A stretch of 64,000 nt of DNA from Alphaproteobacteria bacterium (GCA_049297695.1 JBAQUT010000021.1:583-64582), one strand, 5' to 3'; positions 11,727 to 51,203 are shown, counted from the stretch's first letter. The notes: generated by a model from the letters alone, not told the origin. Numbers and translations: made by a program.

Positions 11727-11796
11727 CTCTCCTATTTGAGCGTTGCATACAACAATATCGCTAATAAAACAAGAGGAAATCTATTTTAATACTACA

Positions 11797-18497: not shown

Positions 18498-18597
18498 GTT
18501 GTAAGTTGTAGGTTGTAACTGTAGCCCATTTCGAAATGCCTCGAGATTTTATGGAGTTCCCAATCAAACGCGACAGTTACAACCTACAACTTACAAC
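18498..18597 (+). ncRNA. Candidate structured RNA / repeat hairpin between zapA and ygfA (position where ssrS/6S RNA is normally found)
   Basis: Perfect 25-bp inverted repeat (gttgtaagttgtaggttgtaactgt / acagttacaacctacaacttacaac) flanking a 50-nt loop. No canonical 6S features could be verified by eye. Confidence 0.25.
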
Positions 18598-19253: not shown

Positions 19254-19278
19254 GTGTTGTAAGTTGTAGGTTGTAACT
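19254..19278 (+). repeat. GTTGTAR heptamer array copy (gttgtaagttgtaggttgtaactgt)
   Basis: Identical to 18498-18522. One of four copies in the window. Confidence 0.6.
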
Positions 19279-19345
19279 GTCGTTCACTGTTGTGGGGTTC
19301 CGCAACAAGGGGGTTGAGGGGGCGAAGCCCCCTCACGACCGTAGG

Positions 19346-19375
19346 TCGTCATGGCGAGCGTAGCGTGGCCATCTC
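19346..19375 (+). repeat. Dispersed 30-bp intergenic element tcgtcatggcgagcgtagcgtggccatctc (copy A)
   Basis: One of 5 near-identical copies. Upstream of and co-oriented with the YmdB-like gene. Confidence 0.6.
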
Positions 19376-19503
19376 CCAAGGTTTAAATTGGCATAAAGTA
19401 ACGATATTTAGCTTTCGTTTCTACCCTAACCGATGGAGAAGAAAAGTGGATATGCTTACAACTAACACCTGACAACCACCAACAGCTTTGCTATAAGCAA
19501 AGC

Positions 19504-20304
19504 ATGAACCTCCTCTTCCTCGGCGATATCGCCGCATCTTCCGGCCGCACCGCCCTTGCCAAACATTTGCCTTTGTTGCGGGAAAAGTACGCGCTGGACT
19601 GCGTGATTGCCAACGGCGAAAACAGCCACAGCACCAGCCGTGGCATTACCGAAGACACGGCGCAAGAGATCTTCCGTGCAGGGGTAGACGTGATTACGCT
19701 GGGCGACCACACGTTTGACCAAAAAGGGGTGGAAGTGCTGCTGGCCCAAAACCAGCGCATCATCCGCCCCGCCAACTACCCGCAGGGCACGGTGGGGCGC
19801 GGGCACACGGTGTTCACCACCGCCAGCGGCAAGCGGGTAGGGGTTATCAACTTGCAAGGTCGCGTGTTCATCAACCAGCAAACCGATTGCCCCTTCCAAA
19901 AAGCCAAGGCGCTGATGGACGAACTCCGCTTGGGCGATACCGTGGATGCGCTGGTGGTGGATATCCACGCCGAAGCGACATCCGAAAAATGCCTGATGGG
20001 CTATGTGTGGGATGGCAAGGCCAGCCTTGTCGTGGGTACGCACACGCACATCCCTACCAACGATGCCCGCATCCAACCCAAAGGCACGGCGTACCAATCC
20101 GATGCCGGCATGTGCGGCGATTACAATTCGTCGCTGGGCATGAGCTTTGAGAGCGTGCTACCCCACATGCTGCAACGCGGCCGCTTTAAGTTTGAACCCG
20201 CCAGCGGCGAAGGCACCCTGTGCGGCGTGCTTGTTACCGTGGGTGCAAACGGCTTGGCCACCCACGTGCAAAGCATCAAGGTGGGCGGGGTTTTGGGGGA
20301 GTAA
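19504..20304 (+). CDS. YmdB-family metallophosphoesterase (TIGR00282-like)
   Basis: 266 aa. N-terminal MNLLFLGDIAASSGR...VIANGENSH metallophosphatase motifs. Confidence 0.8.
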   Translation: MNLLFLGDIAASSGRTALAKHLPLLREKYALDCVIANGENSHSTSRGITEDTAQEIFRAGVDVITLGDHTFDQKGVEVLLAQNQRIIRPANYPQGTVGRGHTVFTTASGKRVGVINLQGRVFINQQTDCPFQKAKALMDELRLGDTVDALVVDIHAEATSEKCLMGYVWDGKASLVVGTHTHIPTNDARIQPKGTAYQSDAGMCGDYNSSLGMSFESVLPHMLQRGRFKFEPASGEGTLCGVLVTVGANGLATHVQSIKVGGVLGE

Positions 20305-20310
20305 AACGTG

Positions 20311-20340
20311 TCGTCATGGCGAGCGTAGCGTGGCCATCTC
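20311..20340 (+). repeat. Dispersed 30-bp intergenic element (copy B)
   Basis: tcgtcatggcgagcgtagcgtggccatctc, followed immediately by ATG. Confidence 0.6.
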
Positions 20341-20928
20341 ATGAACAAAGGAGAAATGACAATGAGTGATAACCGGCAGTGGTTGATCGAGAAACTTAAC
20401 GCTTATACAGGTTTCACGGATGAGTACGAACATATTTCAAAAATCATGACGTTGGAATATTTACGTCATCATTCAAGGGCGTTTTGGCGAGATGAATTTG
20501 TGCCTGGCCATCTGACATCATCTGCGTGGATTGTTAATCCAAGTCGCACTAAAGTTTTAATGATGTACCATAAATATATTCAAAAATGGCTTCAATTTGG
20601 TGGCCACGCCGATGGAAATCCAAATCTTGTCGAGGTTGCCCTTAAAGAAGCAAGCGAAGAAACGGGATTGGATATATCGTTGTTTGAAGTGTTAATGAAC
20701 GAAGCGATCTTCGATGTTGCGATTGTTCCCGTTCCTGCAAATCCCAAAAAGAATGAGCCAGACCATGTTCACTTTGATATTCGCTTCTTGTTAGAATTAG
20801 ACGATGCAATTCCTTTGCCTGAGAATCCTGAAGGGTTGGATGTCCGTTGGTTGGAGTTCAACGAGGCCCATCGACTCATTTCATCCGGAAATACCTGCTT
20901 GCGGATGTTGGAAAAAAGTATCTCTTAG
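20341..20928 (+). CDS. NUDIX hydrolase (AT-rich, probably horizontally acquired)
   Basis: Nudix box region GGHADGNPNLVEVALKEASEETGL. True start may be the ATG at 20359, which has an aaaggaga SD. GC is markedly lower than the neighbours. Confidence 0.7.
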   Translation: MNKGEMTMSDNRQWLIEKLNAYTGFTDEYEHISKIMTLEYLRHHSRAFWRDEFVPGHLTSSAWIVNPSRTKVLMMYHKYIQKWLQFGGHADGNPNLVEVALKEASEETGLDISLFEVLMNEAIFDVAIVPVPANPKKNEPDHVHFDIRFLLELDDAIPLPENPEGLDVRWLEFNEAHRLISSGNTCLRMLEKSIS

Positions 20929-20937
20929 GTAACTCCC

Positions 20938-21672
20938 ATGGCTGGCCACTCCCAATTCTCCAACATCATGCACCGCAAGGCGGCGCAGGATAAACGCAAA
21001 ACCAAATTGGCTACCAAAGCCATGCGCGACATTATGAGCGCGGTAAAAAGCGGCAGCGCCGAGCCAGCCAACAATGCCGTGTTGAAGGCGGCGATTGACA
21101 GGGCCAAAGCGGTGAACATGACGAAAGATGTCATCCAACGCGCCATCAACCGCGGTACGGGCGCCGAGAAGGGGGCTGATTTTGAGGAGCGATGGTACGA
21201 AGCCTACGGTGCAGGCGGTGTGGCGGTGATGGTGAAAACCCTGACCGACAACCCCACGCGCACCATTACCAACGTGCGCAACGCATTCACCAAAACGGGC
21301 GGCAACGTGGGGAGCGATGGCAGCGTGGCGTGGATGTTCAAACCCTGCGGCGTGATTGTTTACCCCGCTGCCACCGCCAGCAACGATGATATGATGGAGC
21401 ACGCTATTAACGCGGGCGCCGATGATGTGCGGCATGAAGAGGATGTGCATCGGATTATCACCCAGCCCGCCGATTTTGCCGAAGTGCGCCGCAAACTGGC
21501 GGAAACGCTAGGTGTTGCGAGCGAGAGCGACCTCACGTATCTGCCACAGCAATTCCACGCCGTGCACGATGCCGACACGTTGGCCGCGCTGGAGAAGATG
21601 ATGGAGATGTTGCACAATGATGACGATGTGCAAGATGTCATCACTAATTTATTCAGCGATGAAACGGCGTAG
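20938..21672 (+). CDS. yebC: YebC/PmpR-family transcriptional regulator
   Basis: 244 aa. N-terminus MAGHSQFSNIMHRKAAQDKRKTKL is the YebC hallmark. Confidence 0.9.
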   Translation: MAGHSQFSNIMHRKAAQDKRKTKLATKAMRDIMSAVKSGSAEPANNAVLKAAIDRAKAVNMTKDVIQRAINRGTGAEKGADFEERWYEAYGAGGVAVMVKTLTDNPTRTITNVRNAFTKTGGNVGSDGSVAWMFKPCGVIVYPAATASNDDMMEHAINAGADDVRHEEDVHRIITQPADFAEVRRKLAETLGVASESDLTYLPQQFHAVHDADTLAALEKMMEMLHNDDDVQDVITNLFSDETA

Positions 21673-21857
21673 TTTGGCGTGAAGTTGCCACTTTCGGTAC
21701 TTCAAGTGTGCAACAAAAAAAACACACCCCTTCAAAAACATACGATGGATTGTTGACACCCCGTACAGATGTGGAAACATGAGAACAAGGTTATGCGAGA
21801 GGCTGCAACTGGGCACCGCACGCAGGCCTCACAACAACTAACAAAAGGGTCACTCCT

Positions 21858-21971
21858 ATGGCCGTTGCCAAGAAAAAACCTGCTGCTAAAAAAGCAGCTG
21901 TGAAAAAAGCTCCTGCTAAAAAAGCAGTTGCTAAAAAAGCTCCTGCAAAGAAAGCAGCTAAGAAGAAGTAG
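21858..21971 (+). CDS. 37-aa Lys/Ala-rich histone H1-like mini-protein (MAVAKKKPAAKKAAVKKAPAKKAVAKKAPAKKAAKKK)
   Basis: Not in the ORF track (<60 aa). AKKA repeats. Weak SD (aagg) upstream. Strong intrinsic terminator immediately downstream. Confidence 0.5.
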   Translation: MAVAKKKPAAKKAAVKKAPAKKAVAKKAPAKKAAKKK

Positions 21972-21990
21972 TTCTTCTTAGGCTATAAAA

Positions 21991-22016
21991 CCGAGGCAAT
22001 GCCTCGGTTTTTTTTA
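21991..22016 (+). terminator. Rho-independent terminator
   Basis: ccgaggcaatgcctcgg hairpin followed by T9. Confidence 0.65.
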
Positions 22017-22025
22017 TCAAAAATA

Positions 22026-22055
22026 TCGTCATGGCAAGCGTAGCGCGGCCATCTC
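22026..22055 (+). repeat. Dispersed 30-bp intergenic element (copy C, 2 mismatches)
   Basis: tcgtcatggcaagcgtagcgcggccatctc. Upstream of the cytochrome b561 gene. Confidence 0.6.
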
Positions 22056-22093
22056 ATGCGTGATAGAATCAAACGGCAAACAAGGAGAAAACC

Positions 22094-22615
22094 ATGTACC
22101 ACCCCATCAGCAAACTGTTCCATTGGACCATTGGCCTGCTTATGATTGGCCTTCTGTTTGTCGGCCTTACGTGGGAAGACTTTTTCCCCGAGCCCTTCCG
22201 CTTCACGTTGTTGGGCTGGCACAAATCGTTGGGCGCCATCGTCCTTGGCCTTTCTGTACTTCGTGCCCTGTGGTGGCTTACCCAAACCAAACCTGCATTG
22301 GTGAAAACACTCCCCGCCCGCATGGCTCCGTTCATCAACCTTGGCCATAACATCCTTTATGCCTTCATGATGATTATGCCGCTTTCTGGCTGGATGATGA
22401 GCAACGCAGCAGGCTATCCTGTATCCGTGTTCGGCTGGTTCACCTTGCCCACACTTCTGGAAAAAAACGACGAACTCCGCCACACCTTTGGCGAAGTGCA
22501 CGAACTGGCAGGCTGGACGCTGATTGCCATCATCGCCTTCCACGTAGCCGCTGCCCTGTACCACCATGTGGTGCTGAAGGACGAAACCCTGAAACGCATG
22601 ATGTTCCGCGGTTAA
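22094..22615 (+). CDS. Cytochrome b561 family protein (CybB-like)
   Basis: 173 aa. Four TM helices with conserved His. N-terminus HPISKLFHWTIGLLMIGL...HKSLGAIVL. Confidence 0.8.
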   Translation: MYHPISKLFHWTIGLLMIGLLFVGLTWEDFFPEPFRFTLLGWHKSLGAIVLGLSVLRALWWLTQTKPALVKTLPARMAPFINLGHNILYAFMMIMPLSGWMMSNAAGYPVSVFGWFTLPTLLEKNDELRHTFGEVHELAGWTLIAIIAFHVAAALYHHVVLKDETLKRMMFRG

Positions 22616-22623
22616 GAGGGAAA

Positions 22624-22653
22624 TCGTCATGGCGAGCGCAGCGTGGCCATCTC
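22624..22653 (+). repeat. Dispersed 30-bp intergenic element (copy D)
   Basis: tcgtcatggcgagcgcagcgtggccatctc. The ruvC ATG follows immediately. Confidence 0.6.
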
Positions 22654-23148
22654 ATGACATCTAGAACCCAACGTATCTTGGGCCTCGACCCCGGCTTGGA
22701 GCACACGGGCTATGGTATAATCGATGTAACCGGCAACCACTCCCGCTACGTCGCCTGTGGCCGTATCACCACCAAAGCAGCAGAGCCCTTGCCTCAACGC
22801 CTTGCCACCATTGCGGCGGGTATTTCGGCCCTCATCACCGAACACAAACCCACCATGGCGGCGGTGGAAGAAGTGTTTGTGAACACCAACGCACGGAGTT
22901 CGCTCAAGCTGGGGCAGGCGCGGGGCATATGCCTGCTGGTGCCTACTCAACACGGGTTGCCCGTGCACGAGTACGCGGCGCGGCTGGTCAAAAAGTCCAT
23001 TGTGGGCACGGGCGGCGCGGAAAAACACCAAGTGGCCCACATGGTGAAAGTGCTGCTGCCCACATCGCCCACCCCCATCCCCCCCGATGCCGCCGACGCC
23101 TTGGCCGTGGCGTTAACGTGTGGCGTGTTGGGAACGAAAACGTACTAG
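22654..23148 (+). CDS. ruvC: Crossover junction endodeoxyribonuclease RuvC
   Basis: 164 aa. N-terminus RILGLDPGLEHTGYGI with the catalytic Asp. No ruvA/ruvB follows. Confidence 0.9.
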   Translation: MTSRTQRILGLDPGLEHTGYGIIDVTGNHSRYVACGRITTKAAEPLPQRLATIAAGISALITEHKPTMAAVEEVFVNTNARSSLKLGQARGICLLVPTQHGLPVHEYAARLVKKSIVGTGGAEKHQVAHMVKVLLPTSPTPIPPDAADALAVALTCGVLGTKTY

Positions 23149-24383
23149 CGGATTGGAGTGGTAACAAGCTGCTTCACAAATTTTTCTGAGGGTGCATTCA
23201 GAATTTTGATGTTCATGACATGCTTGGTTTCAACGACAGGGGGTATAGTTTCCAATGCCGATGTATCAATCCCCCCCTTGGCAAATCGCCCCGCAAGTTC
23301 TTGGGCGGCTTCCATGGCAGGGTTAATTGGTGCTTGTTGAGGTTGAGGAGCCCTCAAACTGCTGGAAGCCTTGGGAGCGTTGGAGGTCGTCGGCGCCGTC
23401 GCCGTCGGTTTGGCATGAACAAACTCAGCCTTGGGATTCACGCTGGCGGTGGCAATCTCGTGGCCTTTTCCAAGCACACGGTCAATGGAAAAAGGGGTAA
23501 TCCCATGCATTTTTTGGAAGACGAACAATTTACTTTTGGCAATCACAGCCATAAACTTATTCCAAGTACGTTTAGGGCCTGAATCGCAATGCGAGAATGC
23601 AGAACGCATTTTACCATCGGGCATTTTTTTAGGGGAATAGTACGCCGTACCTCCCGACATATCGCCCACTTCACCACTAATAGAAGCTCCATGGATCAAC
23701 AGTGCGTCGGCTTGAATATTTGTTTTACCGACGCTCACCCAGTCGATCGCAAGATTGCTCAGGTGCATGGATTTCGATTCACCACCTTTTTTAGAGTTCC
23801 ACGTAGGGTCGCGAAACATAGACGTAACCATAGCCTCGTTTTCGCCATGTTTGTCAGGTGTCAGGCTTTCCATCATCACAATGATTTGGCCAAGTTGAGA
23901 GTATTTGCTAGCATCAAAAGTTGTGTTTGGTACGGAAGTACCGCTCTTGCAAGAGCAAAAGGCTTGGAACTTTTTCCAATCAATCTTCCCACGTTCAAAG
24001 GTAAAAGGTTTGCCTTCATCACGCCCCGCCATGGTTAAGTGGATGCGTTGGAGTTTTCCATAATACTTGCTTTCCGCCCATGCCCGTCCCACAGCTTCAA
24101 AGTATTCTTGCGCTGGAGTTTCTGCGTTGCGAGGCGTGAATATGGAGGAAGATTTGTTCGTTTTTCTAGGGCTTGTATAAACAGGACCAGCTTCGTCTTC
24201 GCTTAAATCATCAAAGACAGGCCCATCAGACCCCCACTTGGCTCCAGCTTGGGCTTCATCCGCAAGCGAGACAATCCCCGTAGCCACGCCCGCAACAACA
24301 GTCGCCCCTTTGGCGAGTGTTCCAAGCGTATCCCGCTTGTTGGCATCAAACGGAATAGGCGCAAAAAGGTCTTTAATACCCAT
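23145..24383 (-). CDS. Hypothetical protein, lower GC, putative membrane-anchored (foreign insert between ruvC and gltA)
   Basis: ORF 23145-24545. Start chosen at MGIKDLF. N-terminal hydrophobic stretch ATVVAGVATGIVSLA. No recognisable catalytic motifs. Confidence 0.45.
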   Translation of the reverse strand: MGIKDLFAPIPFDANKRDTLGTLAKGATVVAGVATGIVSLADEAQAGAKWGSDGPVFDDLSEDEAGPVYTSPRKTNKSSSIFTPRNAETPAQEYFEAVGRAWAESKYYGKLQRIHLTMAGRDEGKPFTFERGKIDWKKFQAFCSCKSGTSVPNTTFDASKYSQLGQIIVMMESLTPDKHGENEAMVTSMFRDPTWNSKKGGESKSMHLSNLAIDWVSVGKTNIQADALLIHGASISGEVGDMSGGTAYYSPKKMPDGKMRSAFSHCDSGPKRTWNKFMAVIAKSKLFVFQKMHGITPFSIDRVLGKGHEIATASVNPKAEFVHAKPTATAPTTSNAPKASSSLRAPQPQQAPINPAMEAAQELAGRFAKGGIDTSALETIPPVVETKHVMNIKILNAPSEKFVKQLVTTPIR

Positions 24384-24445
24384 CCTAACTATATAGGGCG
24401 GCATCCAAGCCAATCCAAGGGGTTCCTGACAGGGCAGGGGGGGAC

Positions 24446-24466
24446 CAAAAAGGGGCCGAAGCCCCT
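24446..24466 (-). terminator. Rho-independent terminator downstream of gltA
   Basis: aggggccgaagcccct hairpin, preceded on the plus strand by an A5 run, which is T5 on the minus strand. Confidence 0.5.
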
Positions 24467-24629
24467 GATAAAGCCATTTGCAAATTCTACTAGCCAGAGC
24501 TGCACATGTGCCCTGTCTGCGCTTCCACTCCGCACTTACCAACAACGTACGCTTGCGGTGCGGTTTTCGTTAGGTCACATGTTCGCCTCTGGCTAGCGAA
24601 TTATGCCAACGATTTTAGGATTGAAAAAT

Positions 24630-25979
24630 CTACTTCCGCTTGCCCAATGGCACAAAGTCCCGACGGGTGGGGCCCACATAAAGTTGGCGCGGGCGGCCGA
24701 TTTTTTGGTCGGGTTCGCCGATCATTTCGTTCCAGTGGCTAATCCACCCCACGGTGCGGGCTAGTGCAAAAATGCAGGTGAACATGCTGGTGGGGATGCC
24801 CACGGCGCGGAGGATAATACCGCTGTAAAAATCCACGTTGGGGTACAGCTTGCGGGAGATGAAATATTCGTCGGAAAGGGCAATCCGCTCCAGCTCCATG
24901 GCCACTTCTAGGGCTGGGTCGTTCACACCCAGTTCGCGCAGCACGGCGTCGCAGTTTTCTTTCATAATCTTGGCGCGGGGGTCAAAGTTTTTATACACGC
25001 GGTGGCCAAAGCCCATCAGTTTGGTGGCACTTAGCTTATCTTTCACCTTTTCAATAAAGGCGGGTACGTTTTCTTTGCTGCCAATTTCTTGCAGCATTTC
25101 CAACACGGCTTCGTTGGCGCCGCCGTGAGCAGGGCCCCACAGGGTGGCAACACCGGCCGCAATGCAGGCAAAGGGGTTGGCGCCGCTGCTGCCCGCCAAG
25201 CGCACGGTGCTGGTGCTGGCATTTTGTTCGTGGTCGGCATGCAGGGTGAAAATCACGTCCATGGCGCGCTCCACAATCGGGTTCACCACATAGTCTTTCG
25301 TGGGCACGGCAAACATCATGCGGAGGAAGTTGCCCGCGTAGCTCAGGTTGTTATCCGGGTACATAAACGGCTGGCCGATGCTGTACTTGTACGCCATGGC
25401 CACCAGTGTGGGCATTTTGGAAATCAGGCGGTAGGCCACAATCTCGCGGTGGCGGGGGTTATGGATGTCCAAGCTGTCGTGGTAAAAACTGGCCAACGCG
25501 CCCGTTACGCCGCACAAAATGCTCATGGGGTGGGCATCGGGGCGGAAGCCATGGTAAAACGTGTGCACCTGCTCGTGGACCATGGTGTGTTCAAGCACGG
25601 TATTTTCAAATGTTTCCAATTGTTTGGGGGAGGGCAACTCGCCAAACATCAGCAAATAGCACACTTCCAAGTAACTGGCTTGGTTGGCCAGCTGTTCAAT
25701 GGGGTAGCCGCGGTACAACAGCTCGCCTTTGTCGCCATCAATGTACGTAATTTTACTTTGGCAGGCGGCGGTGCTCATAAATCCGGGGTCATACGTAAAC
25801 ACACCATGCTCGCCGTACAGTTTCCGCACATCCACTACATCTGGCCCCACGGTGCCTTTCATGGCGGGGAAGCTAAAGGTGCGCATATCGGATGGCCCTT
25901 TGGGGGGCGTAGGAGGGGCAGAAGCCCCGCCGGCGCTGGATTTTTCGGCGTTTTTGGGCATTTTTACCACGTTGGCCAT
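24630..25979 (-). CDS. gltA: Citrate synthase (type II)
   Basis: [18 protein letters not shown] and the overall citrate synthase architecture. Start chosen at MANVVKM. Confidence 0.9.
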
Positions 25980-26091
25980 GAGCGGAACCTTTTTTGTTTT
26001 TGTTAAGTTTACCTTACGGTGCGCCGCACCATGGGTCAACAGGGGAGAGGGTGGTCTTGAAATCCCCCTGTGGCATCCCATGTAAAGGTGT

Positions 26092-26634
26092 ATGACAAAC
26101 CTCTGCACCCCTCTTTTAGCAGTTGGCATTGGTATGGTAGCCAGCTTTACCCCAGCCCAAGCCCAAGTGTGTGAGCCATGGCCCGACTGCATGTACAATC
26201 GTAAACAAGTTAAACCCAAGCAACCTCAACCTACCCAACCACATGCCGCTGCAACACCTCAGGAAGCTACAAACCCTTGGAGCACCACAACCACGGTTGC
26301 CCCGCAATCCAACCCCCAAGTTTCACCACAGCCGCAAAGCTACCGTGGCCTTAAGTTGCCTGTATTTCGGTGTTTGTACGCGTTGGCAAGCAACCCTACC
26401 GCTGTTTCGGCCTCGTGCACGTCTCTTAATTCAACAGAGCAAGCCGCTGTGCAACGCCAAGCGGTTCAACTCAAAATGGCGATGGAGATAAAGGCGGTCA
26501 GCATCAACCATGCCGCTACGCTGTTTTACAAAGGTTCTATAACTCAAAAGGACTGGGATGCTGCGATTGATAAAGCCAACCTCACCTTTGCAACTGAGGA
26601 ATTACGGGTGTCTCGGGCTTTGGGAGGCCGCTAA
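26092..26634 (+). CDS. Secreted hypothetical protein (Pro/Gln-rich linker)
   Basis: 180 aa. Signal peptide ending AQAQV. Low-complexity PQPTQP region. Confidence 0.5.
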
Positions 26635-26635
26635 T

Positions 26636-27046
26636 ATGAAACTCGGATTCGCTGCCGCTACAATATTGACCGCTGCAACCCTAGCTGGCTGCGGGACAAA
26701 ACCCAAAAACCCAGATGTCGTGATGGGCGTGAAAGAATGTACCCTAGGGGATACCCGCCTTCCATGGTTTAACAGCACGTGTTGGGGAGAAAAGCCATCG
26801 TCTCGCGCCACCGCCAGCACCGCCATTTCGGCCGTGGAGATAACCTTGCAACGCCTTCAAATCCCTGTGGATGTGAAAGGTAAAAACACTTGCGATTTAG
26901 CCAGTGAAGCCGCAGAGTTCTTAGATAATTTCGCGTACCAACAATCTCAACAAGGCCCCATTTCAATATCGGTACGACAAGCCATTCAAACAGGATTGAA
27001 TGAGTTAGATAAAGCCGCTGCTGCCGACGGCTGCACTCGCAACTAA
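26636..27046 (+). CDS. Lipoprotein, hypothetical
   Basis: gggagg SD 6 nt before the ATG. Lipobox LAGC. About 136 aa. Confidence 0.55.
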   Translation: MKLGFAAATILTAATLAGCGTKPKNPDVVMGVKECTLGDTRLPWFNSTCWGEKPSSRATASTAISAVEITLQRLQIPVDVKGKNTCDLASEAAEFLDNFAYQQSQQGPISISVRQAIQTGLNELDKAAAADGCTRN

Positions 27047-27048
27047 CC

Positions 27049-30510: not shown

Positions 30511-30594
30511 GGGGGCACCATAACGGGTTTGGTGGGGGGTTGCAAAAGGGAAATTAGGTACTTATATACAGATAAGAAACAAAAGGAGCTTAGT

Positions 30595-31032
30595 ATGTAC
30601 ACCGTAGAAGAAATTCAGAACTTTTTGGAAGATGTTCAGAGCTTGATTTCTAATCAAGGTACTGGAAAAATTAGAAATATAGACAATTATGATATTGTTA
30701 CTTTTCTAAAAGGTTTTTTGCCTTACATGCTAAAACGCAAAGATTATCCTGTAGCAGATGAGGTTGTTCGTGAAGATATTATTTTAACTTCTATGCGAAT
30801 TTTATCAAAACTCACAGGGAACGAACCTAATACCATAGTACATAATATTAAGAATGATTCAGATGAAAAAGAAATATGGATTCTTTGCGAAAAAGAATTT
30901 GAAGGAGCTTTGAGAGCATCTAACAAAGAAGTATTAAGAATAAACACTTGTGGAAGGATTATGGCGATAGGGCGCAGAGAGATGGTTCTCCGTGAATCTA
31001 GTCAAGAGTTATCCGATTTATTTAATAAATAA
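30595..31032 (+). CDS. AT-rich orphan hypothetical protein
   Basis: ORF 30490-31032. Start chosen at MYTVEE, preceded by an aaaggag SD. Very low GC compared with the flanking dnaE and lolD. Confidence 0.5.
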   Translation: MYTVEEIQNFLEDVQSLISNQGTGKIRNIDNYDIVTFLKGFLPYMLKRKDYPVADEVVREDIILTSMRILSKLTGNEPNTIVHNIKNDSDEKEIWILCEKEFEGALRASNKEVLRINTCGRIMAIGRREMVLRESSQELSDLFNK

Positions 31033-31044
31033 GTCAAAAACTCG

Positions 31045-31722
31045 TTAACCCATCCTCACCACGCGCGAACACCGTTTCGCCAACTCCATGTTGTGCGTTA
31101 CAATCAGGGCAGCCATGCCTTCGGTGTTAATCAGGTGGAACAGCAGGTCGGTCACACTTTCCGCCGTATGGGGATCCAGATTGCCCGTAGGTTCATCCGC
31201 CAACAGCAGGGCAGGGCGGTTCATCAAGGCGCGGGCAATGGCCACACGCTGCTGCTCACCTCCCGACAACTGGCTAGGGTAGTGCTCCAAACGATGCCCC
31301 AACCCGACAGCCCCCAAAAGCTCCTCGGGCCGTTCCTGTAATCCTGTCATCCTGTCATCCAGTAATCCTGTTCCTATTCTGGCCGGCATCCCCACATTCT
31401 CCACCGCGGTAAACTCGCGCAACAAATGGTGGTGCTGGTACACAAACCCCATGGTGGCGTTGCGAATACGTGCCTGCTGCCCATCCGGTAACGTGTCGGC
31501 CCGCACGCCGTTCACCCACACCTCGCCGGTGTTGGGTTTGTCCAAAAGCCCCGCCATGTGCAGCAGGGTGCTTTTGCCGCAGCCGCTGGGGCCTACAATG
31601 GCCACGCTTTCGCCCGCGTTCAGGGTAAAATCCATATCCTTCAAAACAGTCACACGGGCAGGGCCTTCGCCATACCAGCGGGAGACAGCGCGCATATCCA
31701 ACAGGGGTGGGGTGTGTGTCAT
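31045..31722 (-). CDS. lolD: Lipoprotein-releasing system ATP-binding protein
   Basis: 225 aa. Walker A GPSGCGKST. ABC signature LSGGEQQR. Adjacent to the LolC/E permease. Confidence 0.85.
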   Translation of the reverse strand: MTHTPPLLDMRAVSRWYGEGPARVTVLKDMDFTLNAGESVAIVGPSGCGKSTLLHMAGLLDKPNTGEVWVNGVRADTLPDGQQARIRNATMGFVYQHHHLLREFTAVENVGMPARIGTGLLDDRMTGLQERPEELLGAVGLGHRLEHYPSQLSGGEQQRVAIARALMNRPALLLADEPTGNLDPHTAESVTDLLFHLINTEGMAALIVTHNMELAKRCSRVVRMG

Positions 31723-32972
31723 CGGCGTAAAAGCTCCACAGGGTCAAACCGCGCCGCCTTCAGCGCAGGCCACAGGCTGGCCAGAACGGTCAGCACCAAG
31801 GCCATGCCCATCACGGCGCCCATATCCCACACGTTCAGGCGGCTGGGCAACTCGGTTAAAAAGTAAACATCGCCGGGGAACAGCTTCACGCCCGTGAGGT
31901 ACTGGATGCCATCCACCAGCCGGTCCATGTTCCAAACCCCCAGCGCCCCCACCACCAGCCCGCCCACGGTGCCCATAAGCCCCAACAGCAGGCCGTTGAA
32001 GAAAAAGATGGTGCGGATATCCCCCTGCGTGGCGCCCATGGTGCGCAAAATGGCGATGTCGGCCAGCTTGTCGTTCACCAGCATCATTTGGCCACTAATG
32101 ATGTTGAACGCCGCCACCACCACAATAAGGGAAAGGATGATGAACATCGTCACGCGTTCCACCTGCAACGCGTTGAAAAAATCGCGGTTGGTGTCGTGCC
32201 ACGTGGTGATGCGCACATCCAGCGGGTTGGCCACCATGCGGCCCAGCGTGTTGAACACGGCGGGCTTCATGGCTTCTACTTGCGTGGGGTCATCCAGTTT
32301 CAATTCCAGTGCCGTCACGCGGCCACGGGTGCCGGCAAACGCCATCACGTCGGGGATGCTGGCAATCACCAACCCGCTGTCAAACTGCACCATGCCGATG
32401 TCGAATATCCCTGCCACGGTAAACACTTGGGTGCGGGGGATGAAGCCTGCAATCGTGCGCGCCCCGTCGGGTGAGAGAACACGGATTTTTTGGCCCGTCA
32501 TGATGCCCAGGTTGCGGGCCATCACGGTGCCAATCAACGCCTCGCCGGGTTGCAGCACAAACGAGGCATCGGCCGTGCGCTTGTCCATGGTTATCAGTTT
32601 GCGGGTGAGCATCTCCGGCACGCGTTCCGCCACCACGCCCCGCAACAACGCCCCGCCGGAACGCCCGCCAAACGTCACCATGCCTTGGCCATTCACATAA
32701 GGCTCGGCGCTGGCCACGCCGGGCAGGGCCCGCAACCGCGCCGCCGCCATTTCGGCGGTGTCTTGCATCATGTCGGGCATTTCCACCGTCATGTGGCCGG
32801 TAACACCCAAAATGCGGCTCATCAACTCTTGCCGGAAACCGCCCATCACGGCCAACACCATCACCAACGCCGCCACGCCCAACACAATACCCAGCACGCT
32901 AAAGGCGGTTACCACCCGCGTAAACCCGCGCCGGCTGCCCAAATAACGATGGATGATGAGGGGGGTGAACAT
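31719..32972 (-). CDS. lolC: Lipoprotein-releasing system permease LolC/LolE (FtsX-like)
   Basis: 417 aa. 4-TM FtsX/MacB-type topology with a large periplasmic loop. Confidence 0.85.
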   Translation of the reverse strand: MFTPLIIHRYLGSRRGFTRVVTAFSVLGIVLGVAALVMVLAVMGGFRQELMSRILGVTGHMTVEMPDMMQDTAEMAAARLRALPGVASAEPYVNGQGMVTFGGRSGGALLRGVVAERVPEMLTRKLITMDKRTADASFVLQPGEALIGTVMARNLGIMTGQKIRVLSPDGARTIAGFIPRTQVFTVAGIFDIGMVQFDSGLVIASIPDVMAFAGTRGRVTALELKLDDPTQVEAMKPAVFNTLGRMVANPLDVRITTWHDTNRDFFNALQVERVTMFIILSLIVVVAAFNIISGQMMLVNDKLADIAILRTMGATQGDIRTIFFFNGLLLGLMGTVGGLVVGALGVWNMDRLVDGIQYLTGVKLFPGDVYFLTELPSRLNVWDMGAVMGMALVLTVLASLWPALKAARFDPVELLRR

Positions 32973-34477
32973 TAGTACGCCTTTGCAAACACCACCATTT
33001 GAGTGGTCGGTTTGCCTGTGAAAATGCAGGTGGTACCAACTTTGTGGGGCAGCTCACCATCCAAAGGCAGGCAGCGTGTTGTTACTTGGAGCTCGGCTTT
33101 GAGTTTCTTTTCCAACTCCGTATCGCCTGCCCATGCACATACGGCAAAGCCTTGGGTTTGTTCGCCTGCAAAAAAAGATCGGAATTCGGCTTCGCTTATA
33201 ACGACTTTGGTGTTGGCATCCCTATAAGTTAATGCGCGCTGATAGAGAGTATCCTGCATATGATCAAGGCGTTCGTGAATGGTAGAGAAAAAATCTTCAA
33301 TCTTTGTGAACGTTTTAAACGAAGTTTCTCCATCACGGTATGAAACAGGAAAAGATCTATTAGCAAGATCCTTTGGCCCTACTTCCACCCGAACAGGCAC
33401 ACCTTTCTTGACCCAATCCCACTTCCGTTCACCCACGTTCATGTCGCGAGTATCAATTTCAGCATCAATCACTCGGCCATGGTAGGCAATGCGTGAAAGT
33501 CCGTCTTGTATCTCCTTACAAAAGGCTAACACGGCTTTGTCATCATCGGTGCCTTTTAAAATGGGTATAATCGCAACGTGTGAGGGCGCCAAACGTGGTG
33601 GTAGAACCAACCCATCGTCGTCACTGTGGGTCATAATCAATCCACCAATCATGCGAGTCGAAACCCCCCAACTGGTCGTCCAGGGTGTTTTCCGTTGCCC
33701 ATCTTTGTCTAAAAATTCAATCGCTGCTGCCTTAGCAAAGTTCTGGCCTAAAAAGTGGCTGGTTCCTGCTTGGAGGGCTTTTTTATCCTGCATCATGGCT
33801 TCGCATGTCAGTGTATCTACTGCCCCAGGGAAGCGTTCTGCCTCGGTCTTCCTTCCTTTAATGACGGGCAATGCCATAATGTCGCGCATAAATGTGGCGT
33901 AAATGTCTAGCATTTGCATGGCCTCAGCCTCGGCTTCGGGCTTGGTGGCGTGCACGGTATGGCCTTCTTGCCATAAAAATTCTGCTGTGCGGAGGAAAAG
34001 ACGTGTCCGCATTTCCCAACGCACCACATTGCACCATTGGTTGATAAGCAGGGGTAAATCGCGGTAGCTTTGAACCCATCGGGCGAAAGCCTCGTTGATG
34101 ATCATTTCGCTGGTGGGGCGTACAACCAAGGGTTCGTCCAGTTCGCCAGCAGGTTCCAGTTTGCCTTCGGCATTCTTTTCCAAACGGTGATGGGTTACCA
34201 CGGCACATTCGGTCGCAAACCCTTCAACGTGCTCGGCTTCTTTGGAGAGGAGCGAAAGTGGAATGAAGAGGGGAAAATATGCGTTTTTATGGCCCGTATC
34301 CTTAAACATTTTGTCCATAATACGTTGGGTGTTTTCCCACAGGGCGTAACCCCATGGTTTGATAATCATGCAGCCACGAACGCTGGAATTTTCAGCCATA
34401 TCGGCAGCCTTGATAACCTGCTGATACCATTCAGGGAAATTTTCAGAACGGGTTGGGGTAATGGCGGTTTTAGACAT
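32972..34477 (-). CDS. proS: Proline--tRNA ligase, Thermus/archaeal-eukaryal type
   Basis: Start set at MSKTAITP, preceded by an aagggaga SD. ...PEWYQQVI...IKPWGYALWE...RPTSE...TSHFLGQNFA... is typical of the archaeal/eukaryal-type ProRS family represented in bacteria by Thermus. Confidence 0.9.
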   Translation of the reverse strand: MSKTAITPTRSENFPEWYQQVIKAADMAENSSVRGCMIIKPWGYALWENTQRIMDKMFKDTGHKNAYFPLFIPLSLLSKEAEHVEGFATECAVVTHHRLEKNAEGKLEPAGELDEPLVVRPTSEMIINEAFARWVQSYRDLPLLINQWCNVVRWEMRTRLFLRTAEFLWQEGHTVHATKPEAEAEAMQMLDIYATFMRDIMALPVIKGRKTEAERFPGAVDTLTCEAMMQDKKALQAGTSHFLGQNFAKAAAIEFLDKDGQRKTPWTTSWGVSTRMIGGLIMTHSDDDGLVLPPRLAPSHVAIIPILKGTDDDKAVLAFCKEIQDGLSRIAYHGRVIDAEIDTRDMNVGERKWDWVKKGVPVRVEVGPKDLANRSFPVSYRDGETSFKTFTKIEDFFSTIHERLDHMQDTLYQRALTYRDANTKVVISEAEFRSFFAGEQTQGFAVCAWAGDTELEKKLKAELQVTTRCLPLDGELPHKVGTTCIFTGKPTTQMVVFAKAY

Positions 34478-34523
34478 CACAAAATTCTCCCTTAAGGCCG
34501 CCATACTGCCGTTTTATAAGGTT

Positions 34524-35039
34524 TTACGCAAGCATCTTCCGCCGTGCCAAGGCGGTTAGCACAAAATACGCCCCCACGGCCACCATGATTTTGGTGAGGC
34601 TGTACAACACAAGGCCGCTCCAGGTGAAAATACCGGGGAATATGGAGTTGGCCCCCCACAAAAACAACGCCGTATCCAGCGGCCCCGCCAAAAGGCTGGA
34701 GTATAAAATCCGCTCGGCCAAAGGCTTTTGGGTAAAGCTGAAAATCGCCCAATCGGCCAGCTCGGCAATGGCAAAAGCACCCAATCCCGCCAAGGCCAGT
34801 TCAGGGGTGGTCAGATGGTAGGTTATGAACGAGGCTAAGGCTATAGCGGCAAGGGCCCCATGGGTTCCTACTTCCCGTTGGCAAAAATCCCGCAAAATAA
34901 ACAAAAGCCCAATCAACAATCCGGCCCATGAAAAGGCTGTGCCGTCCGGCAATATCCACGGCGGAACGCGGGTAAACACAAGGTTGGTGAGGGGGATGGA
35001 CGCAATGTATAAAAACGTGAAAAGGTAAGGGATTCTCAT
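34524..35039 (-). CDS. Small polytopic membrane protein, possibly VUT/DUF165 (YhhQ-like) family
   Basis: About 171 aa. 5-6 TM. ILRDFCQREVG motif. Tandem paralogue of the next gene. Confidence 0.4.
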   Translation of the reverse strand: MRIPYLFTFLYIASIPLTNLVFTRVPPWILPDGTAFSWAGLLIGLLFILRDFCQREVGTHGALAAIALASFITYHLTTPELALAGLGAFAIAELADWAIFSFTQKPLAERILYSSLLAGPLDTALFLWGANSIFPGIFTWSGLVLYSLTKIMVAVGAYFVLTALARRKMLA

Positions 35040-35059
35040 AGGGGGAGGGCTTTCAAAAT

Positions 35060-35575
35060 CTAACCAAGCTTTTTCCGAATGGCTGGAAGCGAGAGCACAA
35101 AATACGCCCCCACGGCCAGCATTACCTTGATGATGCTGTACAGCGCAAACGCGCTCCAGGTTTTCATGTCGGGGAACACCGACGACGCCCCCCACAAAAA
35201 CACGGCGGAATCAATCGGCCCCGCCAGCAAGCTGGAGTACAGCACGCGCTCGGCAAACGGGCGCCGGGTCAAGGTATAAACGGCCCAATCAGCCAGCTCG
35301 GCCACGGTAAACGCCACCACGCTGGCAATGGCCAGTTCGGGGGTGGATACCACGTAGGTGAGGGAAGCGGCGGTCATAATCGCCACCAACGCCCCCCGCG
35401 TGCCCACTTCCCGCTGGCAGAAATCCCGCAAAATAAACACGGTGCCCACCAAAAGGGTGATGGGCGAAAAATACGTGCCGTCGTGCAGCACAAACGGCGT
35501 CACCTTCACAAACAGGTAATTGATGAGCGGAATGCTGAGAATGTACAGCAGCGTGAAGAGAAACGGTATCCGCAT
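35060..35575 (-). CDS. Small polytopic membrane protein, paralogue of the preceding gene
   Basis: About 171 aa. Same ILRDFCQREVG motif and TM pattern. Confidence 0.4.
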   Translation of the reverse strand: MRIPFLFTLLYILSIPLINYLFVKVTPFVLHDGTYFSPITLLVGTVFILRDFCQREVGTRGALVAIMTAASLTYVVSTPELAIASVVAFTVAELADWAVYTLTRRPFAERVLYSSLLAGPIDSAVFLWGASSVFPDMKTWSAFALYSIIKVMLAVGAYFVLSLPAIRKKLG

Positions 35576-36111
35576 CAGCACACCCCGCCAACACCCGTCA
35601 TCACGCTGTGCTCAAAGGTGAAAATATCGCGCAGTTCGCGGTAGCGGCCGTCCATGTCCAGGCCGTAGCCCACCACAAACAGCTCTTTGGGCAGGCTGAA
35701 GGCCGCATGGGTGGCCTCGCTGGGGCTGCCCACGCGCTTGAACAACGTCACCACCGTTTGCGTGCCCGCGCCGCGCTCGGCCAAGGCTTGCTTCAACTGG
35801 CGCACGGCGTTGCCGCTGTCGAGAATATCTTCCACAATCAGCACGGGAGCACCATGAAAGGCCGTGGGCAAGGTTTCGGGGTTCATGGCCACGTCTTGCT
35901 TGATGTTCCCCTTAAAATAGCTCCCGCCCGTGAAATGCAGCACCAAAGGCATTTTAAGCTGGCGGCATAAATCCGCCGCAAACACAAACCCGCCGTTCAT
36001 GGTGACAACCACGTGCACCAGCTTGTGGTGGCCCAAATCGCGGTTCAGGGCGTCGGCCATGTCGGCCACGCGGGAGGCGATGCTGCCAGCATCATACAAA
36101 AGCTTCATCAT
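35575..36111 (-). CDS. hpt: Hypoxanthine-guanine phosphoribosyltransferase
   Basis: 178 aa. PRPP-binding motif VLIVEDILDSGNA. Confidence 0.85.
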   Translation of the reverse strand: MMKLLYDAGSIASRVADMADALNRDLGHHKLVHVVVTMNGGFVFAADLCRQLKMPLVLHFTGGSYFKGNIKQDVAMNPETLPTAFHGAPVLIVEDILDSGNAVRQLKQALAERGAGTQTVVTLFKRVGSPSEATHAAFSLPKELFVVGYGLDMDGRYRELRDIFTFEHSVMTGVGGVC

Positions 36112-36130
36112 GAGCGTAAGGTATCAGGCT

Positions 36131-36865
36131 TTAACGGGATGGGGAAGGGGGCACTTCTCCCAACATCCCCCGCACCGCCGCGTGGGTATCTTCAAACACA
36201 TAATCCACGCCGTGGGCATGGCGTTTGTCCAACGGTGCCGTGCCCACATATACGGTCACAATCCCGTTGGCTTTTGCTGTGGGCAGGTTGTGGGCGGTGT
36301 CTTCCACCATCACAAGCTGCGTGCCATGGGGCAGGTGGCTTAACTTGCGGCGTTTCAGCAAGGCGTAGGATTCGGGTTTGGTTTTAGGGATGCTATCCAC
36401 ACACGCCCGCCCCCAAATGTTGCGGGCTTGGAAAATGTCCCCCATATCGCACGCCGCTACCACGTGTTTCCCATGCTCCCGATAGTTTGCCGTAAACGCC
36501 GCCATCAAGGCTGTACGTGCCTTGAGCATCCGTAGCAAGTGGTTCAACTCGAGGTCGGGTTTCATGTAGGTCGTTATCTTGGCATGGAAGGCCCTCGTGG
36601 TTTCCGTCCACATGCGGGGCTCGTGCGCGTCGGTCAGCTTGAAATGGTGTTGGATGGGCCAAAATACATGCCCATGCTGATGAAAACAGGCAACAATACC
36701 TTCTTTGGCGGCCTCATAACTCACCCCTGCCTCACGGCTTATCCATGTGTAAACCTCATGGGAAAGGTGCGGCCCCGTGGGTGCCAACGTGTCGTCGACA
36801 TCAAACAACACAGCAGGCGGAGTGCGGGAGTTAAACAGGGAGGAAATGGGCGGGCGAGTAATCAT
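36131..36865 (-). CDS. HAD-superfamily hydrolase (pyrimidine 5-prime-nucleotidase-like)
   Basis: HAD motif I LFDVDDTL and downstream HAD motifs. Confidence 0.7.
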   Translation of the reverse strand: MITRPPISSLFNSRTPPAVLFDVDDTLAPTGPHLSHEVYTWISREAGVSYEAAKEGIVACFHQHGHVFWPIQHHFKLTDAHEPRMWTETTRAFHAKITTYMKPDLELNHLLRMLKARTALMAAFTANYREHGKHVVAACDMGDIFQARNIWGRACVDSIPKTKPESYALLKRRKLSHLPHGTQLVMVEDTAHNLPTAKANGIVTVYVGTAPLDKRHAHGVDYVFEDTHAAVRGMLGEVPPSPSR

Positions 36866-36908
36866 ATTTCGGTATACGTTTAATGGGATGCAGAGTCAAG
36901 GCCAGAAA

Positions 36909-36937
36909 TCATGAGAGAGTTACAACCTACAACCCAC
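36909..36937 (-). repeat. GTTGTAR heptamer array copy (4 units: gttgtaa gttgtgg gttgtag gttgtaa, minus orientation)
   Basis: Intergenic, between the HAD hydrolase and accC. Confidence 0.55.
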
Positions 36938-36948
36938 AACTTACAACC

Positions 36949-38304
36949 CTAAAACCGCCCCTCTTTCAAAAACCGCTCCAGCGCATGAATATGGTAATCG
37001 CCGCGGGCAAACGCGGCGGTGGCTAGTAGTTTACGGTGCAAAGGGATGTTGGTTTTGATGCCGCCCACCACAAATTCATCCAGCGCGCGGCGCATGCGGG
37101 CAATGGCTTCCGTGCGGGTGGGGGCCCACACAATCAGTTTGGCAATCATGGCGTCGTAATAGGGCGGCACAATGGCTCCCGGGAACAGGGCGCTATCCAC
37201 CCGCACCCCCGGCCCGCTGGGGGCGTAATACTCGGTGACCTTGCCGGGGCAGGGGGCAAAGGTTTCGGGGTCTTCGGCGTTGATACGGCATTGAATGCTA
37301 TGCCCCACAGGCTTGGCCGCAAGCAAGGCTGGAGAAAGTTTTTCGCCCGCCGCCACCCGCAACTGTTCGGCCACCAAATCCAGCCCCGTCACCATCTCGG
37401 TCACCGTATGTTCCACTTGAAGGCGCGTATTCATCTCCATGAAACTAAAATGATTGTCTTGGAATAAAAACTCCAGAGTGCCCGCCCCACGATACCCCAT
37501 GGGGCCAAGGGCGTTACGCACGGTCTCAAACAGGGCGGTGCGTTGGGTGTCGGAGAGAGCGCTGCTGGGGGTTTCTTCCACCACCTTTTGGTGGCGGCGT
37601 TGCAGGGTGCAGTCCCGCTCGCCCAGCACGGCCAGGTTGCCATGGGTATCGCCAAACACTTGCACTTCAATGTGGCGGGCTTTGTCCATGTACTTTTCCA
37701 AGTACACGCGGTCATCGCCAAAGCTGGCCTTGGCCTCGCTGGTGGCCATGTGCAGGGCGTTGCGCAAGGCTTGGGGGCTGTGGGCCACTTTCATACCCTT
37801 ACCGCCGCCACCGCTGGCGGCCTTGATAATCACGGGGTAGCCAATGCGCTGGGCCACGGCCACGGCATCGTCCTCGTTGTCCAGCGTGCCGTTGCTGCCC
37901 AAATTGCAGGGCAGGCCGGCATCGTGGGCAAAGTTCAGGGCGGAAACCTTATCGCCCATCAGGCGGATATGCTCCGGTGTCGGCCCAATAAAGGTGAATC
38001 CCAGCTTTTCCACAATCTCGGCAAAGCGGGCGTTTTCACTTAAAAACCCAAACCCGGGGTGGATGGCCTCGGCATCGGTCACCTCCGCCGCCGCCATAAT
38101 GGCGGGGATGTTCAAATAGCTTTGGGCGGCAGGGGCGGGGCCCACGCACACGCTTTCATCGGCCATACGCACGTGCAGGGCGTGCTCGTCGGCCTCGCTG
38201 TGGATGGCCACGGTGGCAATACCCATCTCGCGGCAGGTGCGGATGATGCGGACGGCAATCTCTCCGCGGTTGGCAATCAAAATTTTAGAGAACATACGAA
38301 ACAT
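36949..38304 (-). CDS. accC: Acetyl-CoA carboxylase biotin carboxylase subunit
   Basis: 451 aa. ATP-grasp fold with the canonical N-terminus MFSKILIANRGEIAVRIIR. Confidence 0.9.
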   Translation of the reverse strand: MFRMFSKILIANRGEIAVRIIRTCREMGIATVAIHSEADEHALHVRMADESVCVGPAPAAQSYLNIPAIMAAAEVTDAEAIHPGFGFLSENARFAEIVEKLGFTFIGPTPEHIRLMGDKVSALNFAHDAGLPCNLGSNGTLDNEDDAVAVAQRIGYPVIIKAASGGGGKGMKVAHSPQALRNALHMATSEAKASFGDDRVYLEKYMDKARHIEVQVFGDTHGNLAVLGERDCTLQRRHQKVVEETPSSALSDTQRTALFETVRNALGPMGYRGAGTLEFLFQDNHFSFMEMNTRLQVEHTVTEMVTGLDLVAEQLRVAAGEKLSPALLAAKPVGHSIQCRINAEDPETFAPCPGKVTEYYAPSGPGVRVDSALFPGAIVPPYYDAMIAKLIVWAPTRTEAIARMRRALDEFVVGGIKTNIPLHRKLLATAAFARGDYHIHALERFLKEGRF

Positions 38305-38325
38305 TCCTTAACTTGCTAAAGGCAT

Positions 38326-38355
38326 AAGATGGCCACGCTGCGCACGCCATGACGA
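38326..38355 (-). repeat. Dispersed 30-bp intergenic element (copy E, minus orientation)
   Basis: Reverse complement reads tcgtcatggcgtgcgcagcgtggccatctt. Lies between the accB stop and the accC start. Confidence 0.55.
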
Positions 38356-51081: not shown

Positions 51082-51203
51082 TTTGAGTTTCGTAAGATAG
51101 GTATGAATGTTGAATTATTACAAATATTTACGACGGAGTATCTCTCGTGCCTTTGTCATCCCAGCGTAGGCTGGGATCTTCTCAAAGTTAATAAAGTAAA
51201 GCG

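Follow-up and report, generated by a model that had tools for sequence, protein, structure and literature searches.

Introduction

The NTS repeats of Neisseria, CGTCATTCCCGCGMAVGCGGGAATCYRG, written as CGTCAT-TCCCGCG-MAV-GCGGGAA-TCYRG, have been generalised to Ssn-related motifs (SRM) that flank ssnA, the gene for a 94-aa protein with a single GIY-YIG domain (CDD cd10448) [Chenal et al. 2025, Nat Commun 16:2388, PMC11893778]. The element described here is a dispersed hairpin repeat that occurs five times in a 64,000-nt stretch of DNA from an uncultured alphaproteobacterium [GCA_049297695.1, JBAQUT010000021.1:583-64582], which is referred to as the window. An initial annotation, made from the sequence alone, had recorded it as a 30-bp element.

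The core of an SRM is a semi-palindromic, hairpin-forming sequence of 20-50 nt. SsnA binds this hairpin only as single-stranded DNA (ssDNA) and only on the motif strand, cuts a few nt upstream of it and does not bind the RNA form of the motif [PMC11893778]. The three bases before the palindrome govern cleavage, and the C that follows the palindrome is the most important base for binding [PMC11893778]. The NTS-ssnA-NTS layout is like that of an insertion sequence (IS), and the authors drew an analogy to the repetitive extragenic palindromes (REP) and their RAYT proteins. A cognate Ssn is encoded in 81% of SRM-rich genomes, which include members of Rickettsia. The string HGTCWYN(0-2)YYVSBRHN(0-5)WNVSBRGN(0-2)RNCYNB, built by hand from 29 genomes, is the published degenerate search string for SRM. 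About half of the dRS3 copies of Neisseria were re-read as NTS, and NTS-like GTCAT...ATCCAG repeats were reported in Wolbachia [PMC11893778].

The five repeats of the window very probably represent an oriented hairpin repeat in solo copies, of the kind to which NTS and SRM belong, that is, ssDNA recognition sites of Ssn-family GIY-YIG nucleases. This assignment draws on the shared sequence frame, a covarying hairpin, the association of the motif class with ssnA homologues in other genomes, the presence or absence of copies at orthologous sites and their conservation above the neutral rate. The kind of repeat was described in 2025; new are the core, the failure to match the published string and the solo, conserved placement at operon junctions.

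Results

A repeated unit of 33 nt with a covarying hairpin

The window was searched with the pattern TCGTCATGGCGAGCGTAGCGTGGCCATCTC, allowing up to 3 mismatches, and 100 dinucleotide-preserving shuffles served as the control. Exactly five matches were found, with 0, 0, 2, 1 and 3 mismatches in coordinate order (Table 1), and the shuffles gave none. A covariance model built from the arms of other genomes recovers the same five copies with E values of 6e-7 to 3e-5. The number, coordinates and 0-3 mismatches first recorded are thus confirmed, and the empty shuffles agree with the remark that five copies are far above chance. One further match to the model (17 bits, E 0.2), inside a type IV secretion system (T4SS) coupling-protein gene, is probably a chance match or a decayed copy.

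Reading of the flanks and a repeat finder gave a repeated unit of about 33 nt, longer than the 30-mer, with the form TCGTCAT-GGCGAGCGTAGCGTGGCC-ATCTCATG. The 3' end of the unit is ...CCATCTCATG in copies 2-4, which share (A/G)TCGTCATGGCGAGCGTAGCGTGGCCATCTCATG, CTTATG in copy 5 and CCCATG in an orthologous copy from a related genome (L120, see below). The ATG that had been noted directly after a terminal ...CCATCTC does adjoin it, but, as the shared unit extends through this ATG in copies 2-5 and in the L120 copy, it is mostly part of the repeat.

The unit opens with a conserved CGTCAT, which is followed by an imperfect hairpin composed of an outer stem ATGGC/GCCAT, an internal GA/G loop, an inner stem GCG/CGY and a NAG triloop. 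Directly after the stem there is a C, then TC(A)TG. The TCGTCAT 5' flank, an intact 5-bp stem and the C after GCCAT were read in all five window copies, with tails of TCTCA or TCTTA, and the minimum-energy ssDNA fold of each contains the 5-bp outer and the 3-bp inner stem.

Covariation was assessed in 51 distinct arms that were chosen by the unpaired conserved parts only, excluding those arms that had fetched their loci. Pair 5-24 is UA in 30 arms, CG in 20 and AU in 1, and is unpaired in none; pair 6-23 is UA in 39, GC in 5, CG in 2 and another combination in 5. None of 500 shuffles and none of the slid controls matched the observed covariation. The stems found across arms are ATGGC/GCCAT, ACTGC/GCAGT, ATTGC/GCAAT, ATCAC/GTGAT and ATCGC/GCGAT. 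The left and right arms can differ in stem sequence, and therefore every arm keeps its own hairpin.

The motif class flanks genes for small GIY-YIG proteins

In one locus from another genome (L110), a motif search of translated open reading frames (ORFs) found a 96-aa GIY-YIG ORF that fits exactly into the space between a left and a right arm, its stop codon overlapping the latter. Likewise, tblastn detected a 94-aa GIY-YIG homologue in Inquilinus limosus (L007) with palindromic pairs containing GTCATGGCGAGCGAAGCGTGGCCATC on either side. Both proteins match Pfam GIY-YIG, with E values of 6e-13 and 4e-15, and in NCBIfam the flanked proteins have no family of their own. Across 18 homologues of the Inquilinus protein (alignment A2), Y6, Y17 and E64 do not vary at those positions, and these are the residues that were mutated in N. 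meningitidis SsnA and are needed for catalysis [PMC11893778].

The association was examined in 80 metagenomic loci that were fetched by protein similarity alone, 70 of which have enough flanking sequence on both sides. The search for arms of the class GTC-(A)TNGC-GAG...GCN'AT-C covered 250 nt to either side of the gene, and 51 stretches lying 600 nt further away were used as controls. Arms were present upstream in 60, downstream in 61 and on both sides in 58 of the 70 loci, compared with 3 of the 51 controls. The commonest stem near these 70 homologues is ATTGC/GCAAT; ATCGC/GCGAT and the ATGGC/GCCAT of the window are minority variants.

A genome with a RuvC that is 76% identical (L325) carries a divergent 96-aa GIY-YIG gene between ruvA and ruvB (11636-11926, minus strand) without recognisable arms. 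It also has a canonical-looking SRM, CCGTCATTCCGCCCCCTTGGGGGTGGCGGAATCCACGT, after recA (1199-1236, plus strand).

Two copies are insertions conserved in a related genome

In the genome L120 (RuvC 79-81% identical), a copy is present ahead of cytb561 and another in the cytb561-ruvC junction, so that both orthologous sites are occupied; these copies are identical to those of the window at 29 of 33 positions (copy 3 site) and 29 of 30 positions (copy 4 site). Between L120 and the window, identity at third codon positions is only 49-52% for the two flanking genes, and the remainder of the spacer has diverged. Both copies are absent from L122 (RuvC 80% identical), where the cytb561 stop codon and the ruvC GTG are 5 nt apart. 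The cytb561-ruvC junction is also empty in L324 (RuvC 72% identical), where the two genes overlap as TGATG. Since the copies are present in L120 and the sites are empty in L122 and L324, they are insertions in the lineage of the window and L120. Selection or homogenisation has maintained them since then, and their conservation is above the neutral rate.

The last three bases of copy 4 are the only usable start codon of ruvC (22654), because upstream of the invariant R7 and the nearly invariant I8 there is no other start in frame. The use of a repeat-abutting ATG by ruvC, as had been suggested, is thus borne out, and ruvC is the only one of the genes checked for which this holds. Starting at the repeat-ending ATG, the product has a six-residue N-terminal extension. 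This start codon seems to have arisen incidentally, when the repeat inserted into a cytb561-ruvC junction at which the genes formerly overlapped. Copy 4 also includes an internal ATG (22629), with the Shine-Dalgarno sequence GAGGGA located 7 nt upstream, that opens an 11-codon ORF, MASAAWPSHDI (within 22614-22664; stop codon 22662-22664). This ORF ends 8 nt past the ruvC ATG and could provide translational coupling to ruvC.

Arrangement of the motif in other genomes

One genome per species was scanned with the pattern GTCATGGCNNGCGNAGCGNGGCCATC, and there were more than 119 stretches among the matches listed, to which the following occurrences belong. The 26-mer is present in isolates of Inquilinus, Limnohabitans and Hymenobacter (Alphaproteobacteria, Betaproteobacteria and Bacteroidota). 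It is also found in metagenome-assembled genomes (MAGs) assigned to Fibrobacterota, Myxococcota, Chloroflexota and other phyla, and the MAGs include those of Comamonadaceae, Fibrobacter, Myxococcota, Bacteroidales, Hydrogenedentota, Thermodesulfobacteriota, Chloroflexota, Caldithrix and one Rickettsia (L038). A full-text literature search with motif sequence strings found no paper.

Outside the window, the 26-mer most often serves as the left arm of a palindrome some 80 nt long, the right arm of which is inverted and often slightly different, for example CGTCATGGCGAGCGTAGCGTGGCCATCCAG...CTGGATGGCCACGCTACGCTCGCCATGACG in L011. In Comamonadaceae, left-arm/right-arm units are repeated in tandem, the periods being 83-84, 111 or 141 bp. 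Five loci of the Comamonadaceae MAG Jr-16oct17-137 (L005, L021, L065, L072 and L114) contain arrays of up to at least 5 units, often at contig ends, that are like bacterial interspersed mosaic elements (BIME). In the MAG SRP141376_co1_272 the motif lies inside a composite repeat of about 165-180 nt in L064, L070 and 11 further loci, with a conserved 63-nt upstream part and more arm-like hairpins downstream. No repeated gene was found beside the conserved flanks in this MAG, and the repeated unit is the composite itself, which contains no ORF. The motif class was also seen in more than 120 viral or proviral contigs of IMG/VR (L204-L323), mostly with the ATTGC stem. An ssnA-like ORF was present in 2 of the 120 IMG/VR contigs fetched, and in neither is it adjacent to the motif.

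Solo arms between co-directional ORFs in other genomes comprise 16 sense and 14 antisense arms, 2 of the 16 being window copies. The count is crude, as the home-made gene caller behind it put many arms inside genes and located just 2 of the 5 window copies correctly, and it is weak evidence that co-orientation with genes is not a property of the family. In the window, the sense orientation of all five copies does not reach significance (two-sided p = 0.06). With four copies on the plus strand and one on the minus strand, they track local gene direction and not a single direction of replication. GC skew follows gene orientation in the window and was uninformative as a guide to the direction of replication.

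Genetic context of the five copies

The neighbouring genes, as identified by Pfam, encode 5-FTHF cyclo-ligase, YmdB, NUDIX, YebC, cytochrome b561, RuvC, AccB and AccC, which agrees with the names given earlier to YmdB, NUDIX, cytochrome b561, RuvC and AccC. All five copies are on the sense strand between co-directional genes, so the reported co-orientation holds. The copies had also been described as lying just upstream of a gene start; they do precede starts by 0-128 nt, but they are equally just downstream of gene ends.

Table 1. Copies of the repeat and other sequence features of the window. Positions are counted from the first nucleotide of the window.
Feature	Position	Strand	Sequence and remarks	Detection
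Copy 1	19346..19375	+	TCGTCAT GGCGAGCGTAGCGTGGCC ATCTC; solo SRM-type arm; no trailing CATG	covariance model, 42.8 bits
Copy 2	20311..20343	+	includes 3' CATG; 30-mer 20311-20340	pattern search and repeat finder
Copy 3	22026..22058	+	includes CATG; 30-mer 22026-22055	pattern search
Copy 4	22624..22656	+	includes CATG; 30-mer 22624-22653	pattern search
Copy 5	38323..38355	-	TCGTCATGGCGTGCGCAGCGTGGCCATCTTATG; 30-mer 38326-38355	
Sixth hairpin repeat, of another type	51153..51183	+	TTGTCAT-CCCAGC-GTAG-GCTGGG-ATCTTCTC (= TTGTCATCCCAGCGTAGGCTGGGATCTTCTC); 8-bp stem, -8.5 kcal/mol, z -5.75	
Additional match, probably chance or decayed copy	50535-50555	-	GTCATGGCCTTGACCGCCATC	covariance model
Intrinsic terminator	21987-22011		followed by T run; directly before copy 3	
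Small ORF	21858-21971		37 aa, Lys/Ala-rich	
Two hairpins 5' of copy 1	19315-19360		GAGGGGGCGAAGCCCCCTC and ACGACCGTAGGTCGT	
Second dispersed 26-mer	18498-18523	-	GACAGTTACAACCTACAACTTACAAC	
Second dispersed 26-mer	18572-18597	+		
Second dispersed 26-mer	19256-19281	-		
Second dispersed 26-mer	36915-36940	+		
Direct repeat	34558-34835 / 35094-35371		278 nt, 73% identity, 536-nt spacing; second piece 34855/35391	

Copy 1 is located 93 nt past the 5-FTHF cyclo-ligase gene and 128 nt ahead of ymdB. Two hairpins are found directly 5' of it, and the 3' half of ACGACCGTAGGTCGT overlaps the start of the repeat. The other, GAGGGGGCGAAGCCCCCTC, was considered as a degenerate inverted partner arm of copy 1 and rejected, as the window has no second example of it and it departs from the GTCAT frame. 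Copy 2 begins 6 nt past the ymdB stop codon (TAA, last base 20304), and translation of NUDIX probably begins not at the ATG of the repeat but at that of position 20359, which is preceded by AAGGAGA. Copy 3 directly follows the intrinsic terminator and its T run and is 38 nt ahead of the cytochrome b561 ATG (22094), which is out of frame with the ATG that ends the copy. The small ORF before this strong terminator predicts a histone H1-like product, contains 15-nt tandem repeats and is conserved in L120 and L122. Copy 4 begins 8 nt past the cytb561 stop codon. Copy 5 begins 4 nt past the accB stop codon, and about 20 nt separate its end from the accC start (38304).

Other repeats in the window

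A sixth hairpin repeat, of another type, is located 72 nt after the T4SS coupling-protein (VirD4/TraG-like) gene and before the 3' end of a convergent gene. Within it, TGTCATCCCAGCGTAGGCTGGGATCTTC (51154-51181) is the only match to the published SRM string in the window.

A second dispersed 26-mer, built of TACAAC-like heptads, occurs four times with 0-3 mismatches, where none would be expected by chance. Upstream of the cyclo-ligase gene, two of its copies are paired in inverted orientation over a span of about 100 nt; one is 65 nt before copy 1 and one is just after accC. The 278-nt direct repeat is probably made up of two tandem paralogous genes on the minus strand.

Discussion

Assignment of the repeats and a possible mechanism

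Under a model taken from the published Neisseria and Wolbachia enzymes, the motif strand of the repeat would fold into its hairpin when it becomes single-stranded, as could happen during replication, repair or DNA uptake by transformation or conjugation. A cognate Ssn nuclease of about 94 aa, presumably encoded elsewhere by this organism, would then bind the hairpin and nick a few nt 5' of the motif. By analogy, the repeats would have spread through intergenic DNA together with an IS-like unit of the form repeat-ssnA-repeat, or would be derived from it. In this genome, five solo arms would have settled in the short gaps between co-directional genes, and one of them would have split the formerly overlapping cytb561-ruvC junction, where it would now supply the ruvC start codon.

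Several observations weigh against this assignment. The published SRM string has no match in the five window copies, nor within 250 nt of the gene in any of the 70 ssnA-homologue loci. As the string misses both, the motif class of the window lies outside the published pattern. The window hairpins are weak as ssDNA (-3.8 to -6.3 kcal/mol, compared with -9 for NTS), and their z-scores are mostly not significant. No ssnA homologue was detected in the 64-kb window by tblastn or with a hidden Markov model. The putative kinship of the flanked proteins with Ssn is based on Pfam GIY-YIG, the length of 94 aa and Y6/Y17/E64, and the family named in the published work is CDD cd10448. The window copies are all solo and in sense orientation and most copies elsewhere are inverted pairs, a difference that the model does not explain.

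In a more far-reaching version of the proposal, hairpins with the GAGCG loop would be a distinct class of Ssn target, outside the published search pattern and with a nuclease specificity of its own, and selection would have maintained solo sense arms at operon junctions in this alphaproteobacterial lineage. The arms would then not be selfish relics only but would have a role in the host. Such a role may be, for example, the marking of a single-stranded non-template strand for nicking, or translational coupling as at ruvC. This version is considered unlikely, though not negligible.

Alternative explanations

Other explanations place the function of the repeats in the RNA, in regulation at the DNA level or in a different mobile system. 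A processing, stability or translational-coupling signal in polycistronic mRNA, including the start of ruvC, would agree with five sense copies between co-transcribed genes, and also with copy 4, which supplies the only possible ruvC start, holds the internal GAGGGA-ATG ORF and is conserved in L120. The hairpin is weak, however, and lacks a T run, and no terminator-like site (GC-rich stem and T run) overlaps a copy. A search of the window with Rfam returned only two tRNAs at the gathering score; with E values up to 10 there was no match over the hairpin of any copy, and three chance-level hits touch the edges of copies. Most family members elsewhere are inverted pairs on both strands, the solo copies there show no sense bias, the all-sense arrangement is not significant with five copies, and the published SsnA does not bind the RNA form [PMC11893778]. 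An RNA-level element is therefore regarded as improbable, but an RNA-level role could exist as a secondary effect exploited by the host at ruvC. The translation-initiation module that had been proposed is not supported, as four of the five genes, all but ruvC with its abutting ATG, have a start and/or Shine-Dalgarno sequence of their own downstream of the repeat.

It is extremely improbable that the element is a promoter or an operator for a global transcription factor, the first possibility named in the initial annotation, even though every copy has the orientation of the gene that starts 0-128 nt downstream of it and two are conserved above the neutral rate in the relative. Three pairs of sigma-70-like hexamers with 16-18 nt spacing were found between positions 19000 and 23000, with 3.4 expected by chance, and none of these -35/-10-like pairs overlaps a copy. 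Copies 2, 4 and 5 are 4-8 nt past stop codons inside the apparent operons ymdB-NUDIX, cytb561-ruvC and accB-accC, and the functions of the five downstream genes are unrelated. Furthermore, the same 26-mer is found in many distant phyla, in inverted pairs and in tandem arrays of at least 5 units, which does not fit a lineage-specific operator, and solo copies elsewhere have no orientation bias in the crude count.

Of the possibilities raised at the outset, a small mobile repeat comes closest and is partly supported. Presence and absence at orthologous sites and the IS-like layout around a nuclease gene speak for mobility, but the element is not specific to 5'-untranslated regions, into which it had been supposed to insert. 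Mobility could also be ascribed to a RAYT, a Y1 HUH transposase related to IS200/IS605 TnpA, acting on elements of the REP/BIME type. The repeats are short, imperfect intergenic palindromes that elsewhere form inverted pairs (REPIN-like) and alternating two-arm tandem arrays, and by analogy they may act as ssDNA hairpins in the way that REPs do. However, the gene between or beside the arms predicts a GIY-YIG nuclease and not a Y1 transposase. REPs carry a GTAG-type 5' tetranucleotide, and the conserved 5' flank here is CGTCAT. In addition, a crude clustering of ORFs over 119 motif loci gave no recurrent transposase-like family, the clusters consisting of transporters and translated repeat arrays. 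Mobilisation by a RAYT is accordingly judged very improbable.

Implications

Assignment to the NTS/SRM kind places an unexplained repeat of an uncultured alphaproteobacterium in a system described only in 2025. The motif class, GTCAT-NGC-GAGCGNAGCG-NN-GCN-ATC, is missed by the published string and is found beside families of GIY-YIG homologues that number in the thousands in soil and freshwater bacteria. As the string misses this large class, counts of SRM obtained with it are probably underestimates. Proteins of the Inquilinus/Methylobacterium type and the motif GTCATGGCGAGCGWAGCGYGGCCATC make up a candidate pair for enzymology, in which a new ssDNA nuclease would be matched with its target. 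In genome annotation, an ATG that abuts such a repeat is usually not a start codon, yet an insertion can rebuild the start of a gene, as for ruvC.

Comparison with known repeats

The window repeat shares with NTS and SRM the CGTCAT 5' flank, an imperfect hairpin, the C that follows it, an oriented sequence, many intergenic copies and a spread across phyla. In other genomes the motif class also shares the order repeat, single-domain GIY-YIG gene of about 94 aa, repeat. The cores differ, as ATGGC-GAGCGNAGCGYG-GCCAT is unrelated in sequence to TTCCCGCG-MAV-GCGGGAA, is interrupted and is much less stable. The 3' tail is ATCTCATG in place of ATCYRG; only the C and the T/C after it fit the TCYRG-like tail of NTS in the window, whereas copies in other genomes read ATCCAG. 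The Wolbachia repeats likewise have the GTCAT frame; their core sequences and those of dRS3 are different, and the one Rickettsia MAG locus carries the 26-mer of the window. A relation to the Rickettsia palindromic elements (RPE), which are known in translated form, may exist. With the REP, BIME and REPIN elements of E. coli and Pseudomonas, the repeat has in common short extragenic hairpins, inverted pairs, mosaic arrays and a frequent position right after stop codons. The likeness may extend to recognition as ssDNA by a small nuclease-type protein, the gene for which is flanked by the repeats.

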